A stretch of DNA of 64,000 nt from an uncultured Christensenella sp. (GCA_910577795.1 CAJTNW010000001.1:20752-84751), one strand, 5' to 3'. Counted from the first letter of the stretch, positions 6,926 through 40,951 are shown. The notes: generated by a model from the sequence alone, not told the origin. Program-made: numbers and translations.

Positions 6926-8671
6926 ATGCAGGAAAAAGATTTAAAAGAAGCAAATTTGGTTGATTCAGATAAAAAAACCTCTGAAAATCGTACCTTAGAA
7001 GAAAAAAAACAAGATAATACTGTTTTTTACGATGAGGAATATGATAAAAATGATAATATCTCCAATGTAATGATTGAAGATATTGCTACTCATTCTACTA
7101 CAACAAAAACAACCAAAAATAAATATTCTATGCGTCCTACGTTAGGATATTTTAGAAATGTAATTATTCCTGTAATTTGTTATAGTGGTACTTGCGGAAT
7201 ATTAGTAGGTATTTTGGTAGGATTATATACAAAATTTGCAAACTTACTAATTGGCTGGTCAAAAGATATTTATTCTTTAGTTCGCAGTCACCCTGCTTGG
7301 ATACCATTATTTTTTGTTGGGTTAATAATAATTGCACTGCTTTGCTCTTTGCTGTTAAAAGTTACTCCTGAGTGTAAAGGCTCTGGTGTACCACGTACAG
7401 AAGGAGTACTTCGCGGGATATTAACTTTCCGCTGGCTAAGAGTTTTGCTTACAACAATTGCATCATCTTTGCTTACTTATTTTGGCGGATTATCATTAGG
7501 CTCAGAAGGACCATCTATACAAATAGGTGCAACAACAGCACAAGGTGCTTGCAGATTACTAAAATGTCGTATGGCTTGGACAAGATATATTATGTCCGCA
7601 GGCAGTGGTACAGGTCTTGCAGTTGCCTTTAATGCACCTTTGACTGGTATAATTTTTGTTATAGAAGAAGTGCAAAAAAAAGTTACACCTATGCTATTAT
7701 TAACAGCGGGTTGCTCAGTAACAACAGGTGTTCTTACTTCAAATGCAATTGCTCTACTTTGGGGTGGCAACGGATATTTGTTTGATTTTGGGTCTTTCCC
7801 TGACAAATTTGCACTAGGCAATATTTGGATGCTTGTAGTATTAGGTATAATTATTGGTCTTGCTAGTGTTGGCTTTAACTATTTAATACTAAATTCGGGC
7901 AAAATTATCCCTAAAAAAATACCGCAATGGTTTAAATTAGTGTTTGCCTTTTTATTGTGTGGCAGTGTTGGTCTTGCATGGGTAGATACTGTTGGTGGCG
8001 GACATTCTTTGATAATGGGCATTGGTAATGGAGAGTTCGTTTGGTGGTTATTAATCATTATGCTTGTAGTCAAACTGATACTTATACCAATATCGGTACA
8101 CAGCGGAGCAACAGGTGGTTTATTTATCCCTATGCTTACAATAGGTGCTTTAATTGGTGGCTTATTTGGCAACTTGTTTACTCTTGCAGGCTTAGATAAA
8201 TCATTATTCCAACTTTTAATTGTAATTTCAATGTCAGCCTTTTTTGGAGCATGTGTTAGGACACCTATAACCGCAATGGTGTTAGTAATGGAAGTTACAG
8301 GGTCTTTCCACTCTTTCCTATTTACAGGCATTACAATATTTATTGCAACTTTGGTTGCAGAATTCTTTAAAGTTCCTGCTTTATATGATGCACTATTAGA
8401 CAGAAATGTTGAACAAGAAAGAGAAGGCAAAAAACAAAAACAAATAAGTTTTAAAGTAAAAGTTGAACAAAATTCTTTTGCAGATGGCAAATTGATAAAA
8501 GATTTATTATGGCCACCAGAATGTGCAGTTAAAACAATTACTAAAGATGAAGAAAGTATATTAGCAAGTGCAGAAACAAAACTTGAAGGTGGGGATTTAT
8601 TACTTATAAAAGCAAAAACATATAATCCTGACGAAACAATGGAATATGTAGAAAGACTATTGAATGAATAA
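6926..8671 (+). CDS. ClC-family chloride channel/antiporter with C-terminal RCK_C (TrkA-C) domain
   Basis: Selectivity-filter motifs GSGVP, GSEGPSIQIG and GGLFIPMLTIGA are present, with about 10 TM helices. The C-terminal region (GKLIKDLLWP...GGDLLLIKA) is TrkA-C-like. The hydrophilic N-terminal extension is about 70 aa. Confidence 0.9.
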   Translation: MQEKDLKEANLVDSDKKTSENRTLEEKKQDNTVFYDEEYDKNDNISNVMIEDIATHSTTTKTTKNKYSMRPTLGYFRNVIIPVICYSGTCGILVGILVGLYTKFANLLIGWSKDIYSLVRSHPAWIPLFFVGLIIIALLCSLLLKVTPECKGSGVPRTEGVLRGILTFRWLRVLLTTIASSLLTYFGGLSLGSEGPSIQIGATTAQGACRLLKCRMAWTRYIMSAGSGTGLAVAFNAPLTGIIFVIEEVQKKVTPMLLLTAGCSVTTGVLTSNAIALLWGGNGYLFDFGSFPDKFALGNIWMLVVLGIIIGLASVGFNYLILNSGKIIPKKIPQWFKLVFAFLLCGSVGLAWVDTVGGGHSLIMGIGNGEFVWWLLIIMLVVKLILIPISVHSGATGGLFIPMLTIGALIGGLFGNLFTLAGLDKSLFQLLIVISMSAFFGACVRTPITAMVLVMEVTGSFHSFLFTGITIFIATLVAEFFKVPALYDALLDRNVEQEREGKKQKQISFKVKVEQNSFADGKLIKDLLWPPECAVKTITKDEESILASAETKLEGGDLLLIKAKTYNPDETMEYVERLLNE

Positions 8672-35490: not shown

Positions 35491-36402
35491 ATGTATAAAT
35501 TATTTTATGATAATAGCCAATTTGTAATTTTAGTAGATGGGGAACAAAATTCTAGCGGTATGATAGAATTAGACTCTGAAAAAGTGTACATTTTAACTCT
35601 TCTTCCTATTTATGATAAAACGTTGTTTTTACCTATAAGTTCTGTGTGCAAAATAAAAAATAATCGTTTGGTTTGCAATATTTCACATATCAAAATAGAT
35701 ATTAATCAATATTATTTAATACCAAAGTTTGCACCATATATGCCGCCTAGTAACCCGGAAGTGGATATGCAACGAGAGTTTGGCGAACATACAATTACAG
35801 TTTACACCGATAATGTGCCAAAACTACTGATAGAAAATAAAAGCAACTTTATTTCTGTAGTTATTCCTGAATATCCAGAAAAAATGCAAGAGGCAGTGCT
35901 GGATAATGGTGTGCTCTTTTATATTTTATGCCCACATTATATATGCGTAATTTTTTATGACTATACAGATTATTCGGTATTAATAGATAAAGAATGTGAA
36001 AGTTATACTTTTGATAACAATGGAATTTCATTTAAAATTAATCTTAATGATAATCAAGGTAGAATATATAATTGTGCTTTATCTTTTGACGGAAAAGAAT
36101 ATGTTTTGAATAACGAAAACTTTGAATATACTAACTTTCACACCTCACATGAAAAATTGTTGGGGTATGATTTTATGCAAGGGCTACTTGCGGAAGACTA
36201 TGAATATTGTCAAAACTTACTTTCGCCTGACTGCCCTCAAACTATGGAAGACATAACAAAACTTTTTGAAAATTTTGAGGATATAATACTTCCAACCTGC
36301 CCTTTTAAAAATTCAGTTGTATACGCAATTTGTGGCAATAGACCGCTAAAATGTACTTTTTTGACAGAAAATGGCAAAATAACAAAAATTAACTCTTTTT
36401 AG
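35491..36402 (+). CDS. hypothetical protein (303 aa)
   Basis: A long clean ORF divergent from spoVT. I recognise no motif. Confidence 0.5.
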   Translation: MYKLFYDNSQFVILVDGEQNSSGMIELDSEKVYILTLLPIYDKTLFLPISSVCKIKNNRLVCNISHIKIDINQYYLIPKFAPYMPPSNPEVDMQREFGEHTITVYTDNVPKLLIENKSNFISVVIPEYPEKMQEAVLDNGVLFYILCPHYICVIFYDYTDYSVLIDKECESYTFDNNGISFKINLNDNQGRIYNCALSFDGKEYVLNNENFEYTNFHTSHEKLLGYDFMQGLLAEDYEYCQNLLSPDCPQTMEDITKLFENFEDIILPTCPFKNSVVYAICGNRPLKCTFLTENGKITKINSF

Positions 36403-37346: not shown

Positions 37347-39308
37347 TTATACATTACCATTAGTGCACTGAATTACACAATTTCTAATACTAGTATCCCA
37401 ACCATACTCCTTATAAATATTAGACCATTGATAAGTCGTTCCATTAAAACGTATTACATCCAAATTAGAACAATTATAAAAAGCATAACTATAAATATTT
37501 GCCATACTTGAAGGTAATTCTATTTCTGTCAAATTATTACAATATGCAAAAGCATAAGATTTTATAAAATACGCACCTTCTGACACAATAACTTTGTTTA
37601 AACTTAATGGTATCATATAACTATTCATTGAGTAATCATAAGCCCCAAATATATAACCAAATTCGCCTTCCTGATAAGGACTTCGTCCTATGAATGGCAC
37701 TGTAATTTCTTGCAAATTATCACAACCATTAAACGCACCAAGCCCTATAGTGTTAACTGAAGTAGGAACTAAAACATTAGTCAAATTTTTGCAGTTTGAA
37801 AAAGCATAGCCTTGTATTACATAAATACTTTTTGGTATTACAATTGTTGAAACCGCACAGTCTTGAAAAGCATAATCACCAATTATTCTTACTGGCACTC
37901 CACTTATACTTTCTTCTATCCTTACATAATTAGAATATTTGTCAACATACGAAACCACATAACTTCCACCTTCTTTTCTGTACGTTATGTTATTAATAGT
38001 AACTATTTGTTTAGGTGCAAGTGCTTCTACTAATGCTATAGGAATAACTATACATGCAATAAGTACAAAAAGTACTATACTTGCCATAACTGCGGTACGT
38101 GTTTTTTCTTGCTTTAATTGTACATTGCAACCATCAACTATTGTTTGAGCACTTTCTCTTTTACTAAAATAATTAATATTATTCTTTAATAATCTTATTC
38201 TATTACCAAACAAAGTACCAAAAGATATTTTGTTTACTTTCATAACTTCTAGTTGCAAAACTTTTATTCTATCATCAATAATAGTTTTTATAATACTTAC
38301 TAGATTACTATACTCCTCATCCTCCTGCTCTACAGCGGATTCAAACAAATTATTATAATCATTAATCAAATCTTTTATTTGTTTAATTTCTTGTTTTGTA
38401 AAAGTATTAGTATTAGCATATTCTAACTTTTCTGTTTGAGTGGCTAATAAATTTTGCATGTTTTCAATATACTCACATAGTGCAATATCTTTATAGTTAT
38501 ATTTAAAAGTTATGTATTTTTCCAAATTACTTTCCAATACACTAAATTGATTTTTAAAATCTTCAAAAGTCAATTGTGTTTCAGCCTCTTCACTTACTGC
38601 TATATCATCTTTTGCTGTGTAATTATTATCATCTAAATTGTTTTCATCATTAAAATCTTGATTATTTTGATTTTTATTATAAATTTTTAACAAACTATTG
38701 TATACTCCGGCTTGCGTTAAATCTTGATAAGGTTTAACATAAAAAATATACGCAAAGCCTAATGTTACTATACTTAGCAAATTCCACCAGAAAAATGACA
38801 ATTTAACAATAGCCATTTTTATTACATAATGCTGAGTAAGGTCTGGTATAAGTTCCAAATATTCTTTTGCTTTTTTATTTTCAAAATCGCATATAATATG
38901 AAATTTAATGCTATATAGCATAACTATATATCCAGGAATAAAAATAAACAATAATGAAAGTGCAATTGTCAAAATATCAAGCACAAACATTTTCCATATT
39001 TTTGGAAAAACTTGTGAAAAATCAAAAAAAGTTTTTAACCCTCTAGTTTTTTGACCTCGTACAACTTTTAAATAATATTGTGCTGTTTTTATATGCAAGT
39101 ATTCAATAACAATAATATAAAATATTATTAATGGCAACAAAAACAACATAAATATCCTTGAAACAAATGATGTAAGCAATATGTAACACACTGTTGAAAC
39201 TGCTAAAATAATAGCCCACAACACAAAACCAGCAATAGGCACAAGCATTTTTCCGGGATTATTATTGATATATTGCCTTGCATCACTTTTTAATTTTTCC
39301 CTATTCAT
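37347..39308 (-). CDS. membrane protein: DUF975-like N-terminal TM domain + coiled middle + C-terminal BspA-type LRR domain
   Basis: The N-terminus MNREKLKSDARQYINNNPGKM with multiple TM helices resembles DUF975. The C-terminus has IG.YAF..C..L repeats. RBS GGAGGA. Confidence 0.65.
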   Translation of the reverse strand: MNREKLKSDARQYINNNPGKMLVPIAGFVLWAIILAVSTVCYILLTSFVSRIFMLFLLPLIIFYIIVIEYLHIKTAQYYLKVVRGQKTRGLKTFFDFSQVFPKIWKMFVLDILTIALSLLFIFIPGYIVMLYSIKFHIICDFENKKAKEYLELIPDLTQHYVIKMAIVKLSFFWWNLLSIVTLGFAYIFYVKPYQDLTQAGVYNSLLKIYNKNQNNQDFNDENNLDDNNYTAKDDIAVSEEAETQLTFEDFKNQFSVLESNLEKYITFKYNYKDIALCEYIENMQNLLATQTEKLEYANTNTFTKQEIKQIKDLINDYNNLFESAVEQEDEEYSNLVSIIKTIIDDRIKVLQLEVMKVNKISFGTLFGNRIRLLKNNINYFSKRESAQTIVDGCNVQLKQEKTRTAVMASIVLFVLIACIVIPIALVEALAPKQIVTINNITYRKEGGSYVVSYVDKYSNYVRIEESISGVPVRIIGDYAFQDCAVSTIVIPKSIYVIQGYAFSNCKNLTNVLVPTSVNTIGLGAFNGCDNLQEITVPFIGRSPYQEGEFGYIFGAYDYSMNSYMIPLSLNKVIVSEGAYFIKSYAFAYCNNLTEIELPSSMANIYSYAFYNCSNLDVIRFNGTTYQWSNIYKEYGWDTSIRNCVIQCTNGNV

Positions 39309-39327
39309 ATATCCTCCGTATTTTATC

Positions 39328-39355
39328 TGTCAGTAAAGGTATACTTTTTCTGACA
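39328..39355. promoter_or_regulatory. operator-like 28-bp near-palindrome (Pal1)
   Basis: TGTCAGTAAAGGTATACTTTTTCTGACA has 12 of 14 symmetric pairs. It lies 8 nt upstream of a plus-strand TTGACA and sits in the 5' leader of the gene at 39308. Confidence 0.5.
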
Positions 39356-39363
39356 AATATATA

Positions 39364-39392
39364 TTGACAATTTTTGTAGGATATGCTATACT
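39364..39392 (+). promoter_or_regulatory. predicted sigma-A promoter with no downstream CDS (TTGACA-17-TATACT)
   Basis: TTGACA at 39364-39369, an exact 17-nt spacer, and TATACT at 39387-39392. Confidence 0.45.
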
Positions 39393-39423
39393 TTTTTCAT
39401 AAAAACACTTGATTTTTATTGTT

Positions 39424-39451
39424 TTTATAACTATAGTTTATAAAGTGTCAA
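39424..39451 (-). promoter_or_regulatory. predicted sigma-A promoter of the DUF975-LRR gene (TTGACA-16-TATAAA)
   Basis: The reverse strand reads TTGACA (39451..39446), 16 nt, then TATAAA (39429..39424). It faces the plus-strand promoter. Confidence 0.4.
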
Positions 39452-39458
39452 AAGATAA

Positions 39459-39494
39459 AAAGTGTCAGAAAAAGTATACTTTTTCTGACACTTT
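39459..39494. promoter_or_regulatory. perfect 36-bp palindrome (Pal2), operator-like
   Basis: AAAGTGTCAGAAAAAGTATACTTTTTCTGACACTTT equals its own reverse complement. It shares GTATACTTTTTCTGACA with Pal1. Confidence 0.55.
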
Positions 39495-39515
39495 AAATAC
39501 ATATTGTAAACTGCA

Positions 39516-39558
39516 CAAAAAAACAGGTTTGATTAACTCAAACCTGTTTTTGTTTTTT
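39516..39558. terminator. bidirectional terminator after purC
   Basis: ACAGGTTTGA (39523-39532) pairs with TCAAACCTGT (39538-39547), with A7 to the left and TTTTTGTTTTTT to the right. Confidence 0.7.
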
Positions 39559-39563
39559 ATAAA

Positions 39564-40241
39564 TTAACCTAAAATTAATGGAGCATACTCTAGTGGCTCT
39601 AAGAATTTACCATCTTTCATTGCTCTCATGTTACCACCACTAATTTCGTCAATTAAAATAACTTTGCCATCAACAATACCAAACTCAAACTTGATATCAT
39701 ACAAAGTAGCACCTTTCTTTGCCAAAACATCTTGAACAATTTTTGTTATTTTAATAGTATCTGCTTTTAAAACTTCATATTGCTCTTTTGACAAAATGCC
39801 AAGCATATCCAAAGCATCTTTTGTTATAGGTGGGTCACATCTATCATCATCTTTCAAAGTAACTTCTACAAAATAGTCAAGAGGTTGACCATTTTCACAA
39901 TAATCACCATATCTTCTAAAGAAAGAACCAACTGCTTTTAAACGGCAAATAACTTCTAGACCTTTACCGAATTTTGTTGCAGGCTTAACTTCCATAGTGC
40001 CTTCTTCCAAATTAGATTTAACAAAGTGATTTTCTACACCCATATCATTAAGCATAGTGTAAAAATAAGTTGTCAATTTAAGAGCGTCCATACCAAGACC
40101 TTCAATAGTTACACCAACTGTATTTGCACCTGGGTCAAAAACACCATTTTCACCAGTTGCATCGTCTTTGAATTTCAAAAGGTAATTGCCATTATCTAAT
40201 GAATAAACATCTTTTGTTTTGCCTTTATATACCATTTTCAT
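39564..40241 (-). CDS. purC: phosphoribosylaminoimidazole-succinocarboxamide (SAICAR) synthase
   Basis: 225 aa with YKGKTKDVY...LKFKDDATG..., characteristic of the short PurC form. Confidence 0.9.
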   Translation of the reverse strand: MKMVYKGKTKDVYSLDNGNYLLKFKDDATGENGVFDPGANTVGVTIEGLGMDALKLTTYFYTMLNDMGVENHFVKSNLEEGTMEVKPATKFGKGLEVICRLKAVGSFFRRYGDYCENGQPLDYFVEVTLKDDDRCDPPITKDALDMLGILSKEQYEVLKADTIKITKIVQDVLAKKGATLYDIKFEFGIVDGKVILIDEISGGNMRAMKDGKFLEPLEYAPLILG

Positions 40242-40498: not shown

Positions 40499-40951
40499 AT
40501 GATTATAGAAAATAAAAATAAATGTATTTTTACAGAAAACTTTACAGATTTATTTTTAAGTACTGGTCTTGGAAAAACTAAGTTTGCTAATAGTGTTGGT
40601 CTTAAACACTCTCAAATTGAAAAGTATTTGCAGGGCACTATTCCTGTGACGAATAGTGTAGTAAAAATTTGTGATTATTTTAATTGTTCTATTGATTATA
40701 TAACTGGTTTATCAAATACTTTTTCTTATCCAAATTTAAATAAAGGCTTTTGCCCTAACAAATTTTATCCTGAATACGAAAGATTACTAAAATTAAACAA
40801 TACTAATCACTATAGACTTGCCAAAAATAATATTGTTACCGAAACAAGTTTAAGTTTATGGAAAAAGGGTTGTCTTCCAAAGTTTGACGTTTTAATTTCT
40901 ATTGCTTATGAATTAGATGGTTCTATTGATAAAATGTTAGGAAGAATATAA
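40499..40951 (+). CDS. XRE-family protein with two tandem HTH domains
   Basis: TKFANSVGLKHSQIEKYLQGTIPVTNSVVKICDYFNCSIDYITG is followed by a second HTH-like half ending ..LISIAYELDGSIDKMLG. Confidence 0.65.
   Translation: MIIENKNKCIFTENFTDLFLSTGLGKTKFANSVGLKHSQIEKYLQGTIPVTNSVVKICDYFNCSIDYITGLSNTFSYPNLNKGFCPNKFYPEYERLLKLNNTNHYRLAKNNIVTETSLSLWKKGCLPKFDVLISIAYELDGSIDKMLGRI

Follow-up and report, generated by a model that had tools for sequence, protein, structure and literature searches.

What do two large palindromes, mirrored around a pair of facing promoters, do in the short space between two genes of an uncultured gut bacterium? The question is raised by a locus in a stretch of 64,000 nucleotides (nt) from an uncultured Christensenella sp. 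(GCA_910577795.1, CAJTNW010000001.1:20752-84751). This whole 64-kb stretch is referred to below as the window, and all coordinates are counted along it; the region 39000-39900 was read directly. The palindromes lie in the intergenic space between two minus-strand genes, one encoding a membrane or surface protein with leucine-rich repeats (LRR; hereafter the LRR gene) and the other being purC. The original prediction, made from the DNA sequence, saw here a switch in which a single regulator binds both palindromes and controls two fixed, convergent promoters. Our analysis retains the idea that a protein works a switch placed before the DUF975-like/LRR gene, and replaces the operator pair by a different device. 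It is probable that the region 39328-39490, with a conserved flank to about 39513, is a compact invertible promoter element (inverton) upstream of this gene, and the palindromes are most likely the sites at which a small serine recombinase cuts and rejoins DNA, not repressor sites.

Two palindromes delimit a promoter-bearing segment

The gene-proximal palindrome, P1 (TGTCAGTAAAGGTATACTTTTTCTGACA, 39328-39355), is a 28-bp near-palindrome with the halves TGTCAGTAAAGGTA and TACTTTTTCTGACA, the outer of which is imperfect; its dyad lengthens to 18-nt arms that are 83% complementary. The distal one, P2 (AAAGTGTCAGAAAAAGTATACTTTTTCTGACACTTT, 39459-39494), is perfect, its 18-nt arms being 100% complementary without any gap, and consists of a 28-bp core (39463-39490) extended to 36 bp by AAAG/CTTT. 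Both had been reported at these coordinates, as had a 17-mer common to the two, which we also recovered. Beyond these features we found an inverted repeat of 38 nt that spans both palindromes (arms 39318-39355 and 39463-39500, 107 nt apart). P1 and P2 are the predicted crossover sites, and between them lies the segment of 107 bp (39356-39462) that is predicted to be invertible. The site-to-site spacing is 135 bp. A search of the 64 kb with the pattern TGTCAG-N5-GTATAC-N5-CTGACA, allowing up to three mismatches, returned exactly two sites against 0.02 expected. The hunt for further sites that had been suggested earlier thus yielded none more in the window, and a dispersed family in other genomes. 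P1 and P2 agree with the consensus of this family at all 19 specified positions.

The segment carries two near-consensus promoters facing each other, as originally described. The main promoter, TTGACA-17-TGcTATACT (39364-39392, plus strand), matches the consensus at 11 of 12 positions and has a TG extension; judged by consensus only, it would start transcription at about 39399 and point away from the LRR gene. The second, TTGACA-16-TATAAA (minus strand, hexamers at 39451-39446 and 39429-39424), likewise scores 11/12, has a predicted start at about 39417 and points toward the LRR gene. Its -10 hexamer overlaps an octamer, TTTATAAC (39424-39431), that is conserved in the family. A third half-site, AAAGTGTCA, said to overlap the leftward -35 hexamer, is indeed present at 39442-39450, but its count is at chance level (AAGTGTCA occurs 3 times vs 2.2 expected) and relatives do not conserve it.

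Homologous copies have inverted and deleted at the palindromes

The strongest evidence comes from homologous copies of the element, for which contigs carrying alternative alleles were retrieved via identical neighbour proteins. Among the contigs that encode P0213, a 782-aa LRR protein, the 107-bp segment lies one way in L062, L063 and L064 and is exactly inverted in L065: the segment is 100% identical after reverse-complementing vs 65% otherwise, between flanks that are 98-99% identical. The contigs that share the neighbour protein P0216 behave likewise, L066 and L067 being inverted relative to L069, again with 100% identity of the segment when inverted. Between species, L031 and L035 have flanks that are reverse-complementary at 91-97%, and an internal 108 bp that aligns on the same strand at 90%. 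Homologous segments are thus known both ways at L064/L065, L066/L069 and L031/L035. What has flipped in the inverted alleles is everything inward of the asymmetric outer half-sites, which themselves have stayed with the flanks. Inversion has therefore taken place in recent times on two strain backgrounds; it was precise and conservative, and its break points fell within the palindromes.

Deletion is documented as well. L018 (4532-4559) and L042 (4948-4975) hold exactly one palindrome where the orthologous loci L029 (700-863) and L021 (219-381), respectively, hold the whole module. With a palindromic AT core inside near-perfect palindromes, the sites lack an intrinsic direction, and alleles with a single palindrome are the expected deletion product. 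The mirror symmetry of the locus is therefore best understood as the inverted-repeat boundaries of an invertible element. The proposal of operators for one regulator was not supported: homologous segments are inverted or deleted at the palindromes, no regulator co-occurs with them, and the leftward promoter is specific to the window.

Many contigs end at or just inside palindromes (L001, L004, L014, L016, L020, L067, L068, L070 and L071-L074). Such breaks were given little weight, because those of the Logan contigs (L071-L074), all of which begin inside P2, can be attributed to the assembly k-mer, presumably k = 31 and too short to cross a perfect palindrome of 36 nt; breaks from other assemblers may reflect mixed orientation. 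At the start of contig L038 (1-240), the sequence right of the second palindrome recurs as a perfect fold-back, which is an assembly artefact at the palindrome.

The element belongs to a dispersed family of modules

To place the window copy in a wider context, 185,579 species genomes, one per species, were scanned with the exact palindrome pattern. It was found at 45 loci in about 10 metagenome-assembled genomes (MAGs), some of which have about 10 loci each. The carriers are classified as Christensenella, Christensenellaceae or uncultured and unnamed Clostridia, except for two bins labelled as other families. When up to three mismatches are allowed, nearly all sites are paired, at a spacing of 134-137 bp in an AT-rich clade, to which the 135 bp of the window conform, and of 83-126 bp in a GC-richer clade. 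The spacings fall into classes of about 84, 94, 105, 113, 125 and 136 bp, near multiples of 10.5 bp (Rayleigh R = 0.8-0.9, computed over loci that are not independent). Spacing phased at about 10.5 bp suggests that the two sites are bridged by protein on double-stranded DNA. Retention of the palindrome across AT-rich and GC-richer genomes, together with this phasing, also points to recognition as double-stranded DNA.

By BLAST, the DNA common to the window and the family loci is confined to 39321-39510, with 73-78% identity and a right-hand limit that varies between 39494 and 39510. The locus therefore contains a repeat unit of about 190 bp bounded by the palindromes, which had escaped the original prediction. 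The 20 modules of the AT-rich clade that could be aligned have a fixed order: P1, 7-11 bp, TTGACA-16/18-TATAAT, TTTATAAC, AAAG-P2-CTTTTT and a short conserved flank. The internal promoter, matching the consensus at 10-12 of 12 positions and lying 7-11 bp from P1, is present in all 20. The two palindromes differ consistently: P1 is imperfect, with a variable outer half, in 18/20 modules and never has a T-run toward the gene, and P2 is perfect in 13/20 with the AAAG/CTTT extension, usually followed by an outward CTTTTT. The octamer TTTATAAC stands at a fixed position in 19 of the 20 modules and is accompanied by a matching -35 hexamer in the window only; a promoter that relies on the -10 alone, a bend site and an element of the leader are possible functions. 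Accordingly, a leftward promoter of 11/12 is found in the window alone, the other modules reaching 7-10 at varying positions. The genes on the P1 side mostly encode surface or membrane proteins (LRR_5, DUF975, collagen-repeat, TM2, zinc-ribbon).

Beyond P2, the flank CTTTAAATACATATTGTAAAC (39491-39513) corresponds to the family consensus CTTTTT-(A/T)ACA-N3-5-TG-TAA and, judged from its sequence, is a candidate accessory site or terminator tail. It is kept in about 14 of the 20 modules (L005, L012, L015, L031 and others) and includes a small dyad, TTTACA/TGTAAA; it could be bound by the recombinase as an accessory site or by an architectural protein. A dyad resembling TTGGCAAATTTTGCCAAT lies at about +12 to +28 of the internal promoter in L003, L005, L012, L015, L019, L025, L026, L029 and L039, and is not in the window copy.

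Modules of the GC-richer clade (L036, L028, L040, L011, L045, L022, L033) are built differently. A consensus promoter lies outside the pair of sites, 8-14 nt upstream of P1; P1 has a covarying stem extension and a T-run; the segment measures 55-97 bp; and P2 is followed directly by a ribosome-binding site (RBS) and a collagen-repeat or LRR gene. An invertible terminator was considered for this clade and ruled out, as the T-runs persist after in-silico flipping. The palindrome pattern was absent from the viral contigs of IMG/VR, and a phage origin was rejected.

A serine recombinase is encoded next to two copies

Which enzyme could act on these sites? A protein of 203 aa, encoded 387 bp from the L031/L035 inverton, a copy known in both orientations, matches the Pfam Resolvase family (PF00239, 1.7e-28) and has the motifs YARVSTSDQ and FGRPRR (GRPRR) and a weak C-terminal helix-turn-helix (HTH). 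In another lineage, a rabbit-gut MAG encodes a homolog with 56% identity at a distance of 133 bp from a palindrome. The closest solved relatives are Sin/Bin3 (2e-25) and the gamma-delta/Tn3 resolvase (5e-22), followed by Gin-type invertases (1e-12); against the NCBIfam Mpi family (NF009949) the protein scores 51.7 bits where the cut-off is 272, so it is not a member. An ortholog, P0144, 85% identical to the inverton-adjacent recombinase, is present in GCA_948561445.1 (contig CAOXXW010000006.1) and in ERZ14651025, both of which also hold the purC-LRR locus of the window, as L047 and L048. P0144 is intact, with R8 and S10 present and the motif YARVSSNDQ. The region in front of the recombinase gene that holds its promoter shows a tandem duplication in L031 (at about 6990-7260; masked by an N-run in L035), both units measuring about 100 bp and containing TTGACT and a TATAAT-like hexamer.

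The format of the sites is that of resolvase crossover sites. A symmetrised Tn3 res site I that has been used experimentally, TGTCTGATAATTTATAAATTATCAGACA, is 28 bp long with a central AT (PMC4499144). The window site, TGTCAGAAAAAGTATACTTTTTCTGACA, is also 28 bp long, arranged as 13-2-13 around a central AT, and shares with the Tn3 site the TGTC.GA ends and the TA/TA centre; by manual count, 10 of the 14 half-site positions are identical.

Proposed mechanism of the switch

Taken together, these observations suggest the following model. A small serine recombinase from the resolvase/Sin/invertase superfamily, whose gene lies elsewhere in the genome, would use P1 and P2 as its crossover sites. 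One recombinase dimer would bind each site, the two sites would synapse across 13 helical turns, and after cleavage at the central AT the 107-bp segment would be rotated and rejoined. The gene predicted to be switched (37347-39308, minus strand) encodes a 653-aa protein with a DUF975-like N-terminus (22.8 bits, under the cut-off of 34.8) and BspA-type LRR_5 repeats (1e-28). Its RBS, GGAGG (39317-39313), is only 10 nt from P1, so that every transcript for this gene must cross P1, and its start lies 19 nt past P1, on the strand opposite to the main promoter.

In the present state, the promoter at 39364-39392 would transcribe away from the LRR gene; its RNA would first reach the P2 hairpin and then the terminator that follows purC. 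The P2 hairpin (about -21 kcal/mol) is also foldable on the minus strand, where it is followed by TTTTTATCTTTTG and scores as terminator-like in a scan (16 pairs); P2 and this T-run inside the segment would block read-through from purC. The purC terminator, an addition to the elements originally described, is bidirectional and intrinsic, with a perfect 14-bp stem and T-runs on both strands (from 39519 to between 39551 and 39558), and would also end the rightward transcript of the main promoter, at a length of about 160 nt. After an in-silico flip, the main promoter comes to lie beside P2, at 39454-39426 on the minus strand, with a predicted start at about 39419. Transcription would then run leftward through the imperfect P1 into the RBS 10 nt beyond. 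As a leader hairpin P1 is weak (-7 to -12 kcal/mol) and has no U-run, which would let the transcript pass, and the P2 hairpin is strong, with a T-run on the outward side; this asymmetry would suit the logic of the switch. Since the window copy has a second, leftward promoter, a flip may exchange a stronger for a weaker promoter (high/low) rather than act as a strict on/off switch. Interference between the promoters, which the original prediction had placed at the centre, may add to the effect in the window copy, and their collision could deepen the low state.

The lack of direction of the sites has a further implication, namely, that the same enzyme could excise the 135-bp promoter module as well as flip the segment. 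For the window copy, the resulting deletion allele would read GTATTTTATC, one site and CTTTAAATAC. Orthologous loci of different species can hold non-orthologous internal modules (L034/L041, L023/L026, L039/L005); in L034/L041 the flank is 91% identical and the interior 72%, and paralogous modules within one genome are up to 93% identical. Solitary-site alleles (L018, L042), non-orthologous modules and these paralogs hint at shuffling of promoter cassettes, in which modules would be excised as small circles and re-inserted at solitary palindromes in an integron-like manner, a scenario that we regard as unlikely.

Orientation of the window copy and the weight of the evidence

Several observations weigh against an invertible promoter at this locus. 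The window copy has one orientation in 13/13 independent assemblies (the window, L046-L051, L057, L058 and L071-L074), of which 12 were obtained by as many exact-protein look-ups, all in native orientation. The junctions predicted for the inverted state, GTATTTTATC-P1-CTTTTTATCTTTTGAC and CAATATATATT-P2-CTTTAAATAC, were not found in the metagenomes of the Joint Genome Institute (JGI), where the locus occurs on one contig, in native orientation. Moreover, the promoter is directed away from the adjacent gene in 14 of 15 modules of the AT-rich clade; this fits a population that is mostly OFF and would fit a fixed design too. A good leftward promoter inside the window segment makes expression of the LRR gene possible in both states. 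The promoter of the GC-richer clade lies outside the segment, a layout for which the model does not account. Finally, a motif search and tblastn found no recombinase gene in the window, and the pairing of the recombinase with the sites is suggested by adjacency and site format. Assemblies report the majority state, so that neither the single orientation nor the missing junctions decide between a switching and a locked copy. In multi-locus phase variation it is normal for most of a population to be OFF. An almost universal preference for one orientation has been described for some published invertons (PMC11892184).

The uniform orientation of the 13 assemblies would be explained directly if the window copy were a locked relic, descended from the invertible family and no longer flipping in this lineage. 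P2 would then serve as an insulating hairpin or terminator, the leftward promoter would provide basal expression of the LRR gene, and the rightward promoter would be an orphan. The consensus leftward promoter that the window has gained for itself and the recombinase gene without an adjacent inverton in the window species are compatible with this view, and degeneration does seem to occur in the family: in L024 both ends of P1 are mutated and the segment is shortened to 98 bp. Against a relic, the sites of the window copy match the consensus at all 19 specified positions at the canonical spacing of 135 bp, the recombinase ortholog retains R8 and S10, and the strain variants L047, L048 and L074 have substitutions in the segment and none in the sites. 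Furthermore, the in-silico flip regenerates both sites unchanged, because the three half-sites that need to match each other are identical. We therefore consider a relic to be improbable and prefer a functional invertible promoter.

The other way to account for a constant orientation, which here extends to 14/15 related modules, is a fixed module in the spirit of the original prediction. A dimeric or tetrameric protein bound to P1 and P2 would loop the 135 bp like a GalR-type repressosome and control the two facing promoters, with no rearrangement at the window copy; the strong rightward promoter would produce a short RNA ending at P2 or the purC terminator and interfere with the weaker leftward promoter of the LRR gene. 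Both promoters of the window are near consensus, the spacing of the sites is helically phased, as it is in repression loops, and the P2 hairpin would end a rightward RNA. Yet the leftward promoter is not kept in the family, and the modules are not accompanied by any candidate regulator; what recurs beside them is a resolvase-family gene, in line with the resolvase crossover format of the sites. In addition, a fixed module would leave a strong promoter without a gene to transcribe, and homologous modules invert and delete exactly at the palindromes. A fixed module is accordingly judged quite improbable, and inversion by a serine recombinase remains the preferred explanation.

Least of all do we expect a small-RNA gene (promoter, about 85 nt, P2 terminator) or a transposase-mobilised element akin to repetitive extragenic palindromes (REP) or miniature inverted-repeat transposable elements (MITE), with the palindromes as terminal inverted repeats: the unit occurs in many dispersed copies and has a strong promoter, a terminal hairpin and an interior that differs between orthologous loci, but its transcribed part is poorly conserved save for the promoter elements and matches no Rfam family, target-site duplications are missing, the palindrome is kept across AT-rich and GC-richer genomes at a helically phased spacing, and empty alleles keep one palindrome, not none, which marks it as a recombination site rather than a transposon end. 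Motif scanning of the loci searched revealed no tyrosine recombinases; other transposase types were not screened. Rfam 15 gave no match in the window at the gathering score, with sub-threshold hairpin matches only in 39250-39620, and a riboswitch, leader or known small RNA was rejected on this ground. A CRISPR (clustered regularly interspaced short palindromic repeats) repeat was rejected by inspection, there being two copies only at the wrong spacing, and a sigma-54 promoter in the GGCAAA...GCC motif because the spacing is 10, not 12.

Comparison with known inversion systems

The closest functional parallel is Mpi of Bacteroides fragilis, reportedly described by Coyne et al. in 2003 as a master serine invertase for many dispersed promoter invertons. 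As in that system, a small serine recombinase would act in trans on scattered short promoter segments in front of genes for surface structures, with most copies in OFF orientation in the consensus sequence. The host, however, belongs to another phylum, the repeats of the window are 28-bp TGTCAG-N5-GTATAC-N5-CTGACA dyads, the promoter is sigma-70-like (TTGACA/TATAAT), and the recombinase, although it would work like Mpi, falls below the cut-off of the Mpi family.

Similarity to Hin/hix, Gin/gix and Cin/cix extends to both enzyme and site. The small serine recombinases share a GRPR minor-groove motif and a C-terminal HTH, the crossover site is an imperfect palindrome with an A/T tract by its 2-bp core, and inversion of a promoter switches a gene for a surface protein. 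The hix sites measure 26 bp, and the invertible segment, of about 1 kb or more, includes the invertase gene and a Fis-dependent enhancer. Here, by contrast, the sites are 28 bp long, the 107-bp segment is gene-free, and the enzyme is nearer to Sin and the resolvases (2e-25) than to the Gin type (1e-12).

With site I of Tn3/gamma-delta res and with Sin, the sites share the 28-bp dyad, the TGTC...GACA ends and a central palindromic AT, and these systems provide the closest solved homologs; one-site deletion products are also seen in the module family. Resolvases use accessory sites, act on directly repeated res sites and resolve cointegrates. The modules, in contrast, have isolated sites that flank a promoter and give inversion, with no recognisable sites II and III and only the short P2 flank.

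Among the Clostridia, RecV of Clostridioides difficile (cwpV, flgB, cmrRST) is comparable in that elements of about 150-200 bp lie in the leader or promoter regions of surface and motility genes. RecV is a tyrosine recombinase acting on repeats of about 21 bp, and several of its switches act after initiation via a terminator or Rho. The modules described here differ in having a serine recombinase and self-palindromic sites.

No paper was found that contains this sequence or that deals with invertons in Christensenellaceae. The probable switch is of a familiar bacterial type and represents a previously undescribed version of it, carried by uncultured gut bacteria. What began as an operator puzzle becomes a phase-variation system that can be put to the test, present in uncultured Christensenellaceae-like Clostridia from the gut of mouse, rabbit and human. 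It comes with a 28-bp site that is well defined in sequence, a serine recombinase as the candidate enzyme acting in trans, and about 20 or more genes that would be switched. Most of the products are LRR/BspA-type, collagen-like or small membrane proteins and are likely to determine how the bacteria interact with the host or with phages. Being so compact, at 107 bp and 13 helical turns, the element would lend itself to mechanistic and synthetic-biology work as a minimal serine-recombinase switch. Moreover, the site pattern can be used in annotation to find such switches directly in MAGs.

Neighbouring genes

The upstream neighbour of the element, purC (39564-40241, minus strand), encodes SAICAR synthetase; its 3' end faces the element, by which it would not be regulated. 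Farther along, 40499-40951 (plus strand) encodes a 150-aa protein in which an Xre-type HTH (HTH_26) is joined by a second, HTH-like half. It was considered as a regulator of the element and set aside, having no homolog in any other module-bearing locus searched. On the other side of the LRR gene, an open reading frame of 303 aa (35491-36402, plus strand), situated between a spoVT-like gene and a Zn-peptidase gene, matches no Pfam family. The LRR gene itself has no orthologs in other species beyond its own 90% cluster. P0227, a 188-aa fragment of its product (37347-39308), occurs as the same fragment on 112 contigs, which indicates a recurrent assembly break in this repeat-rich gene.

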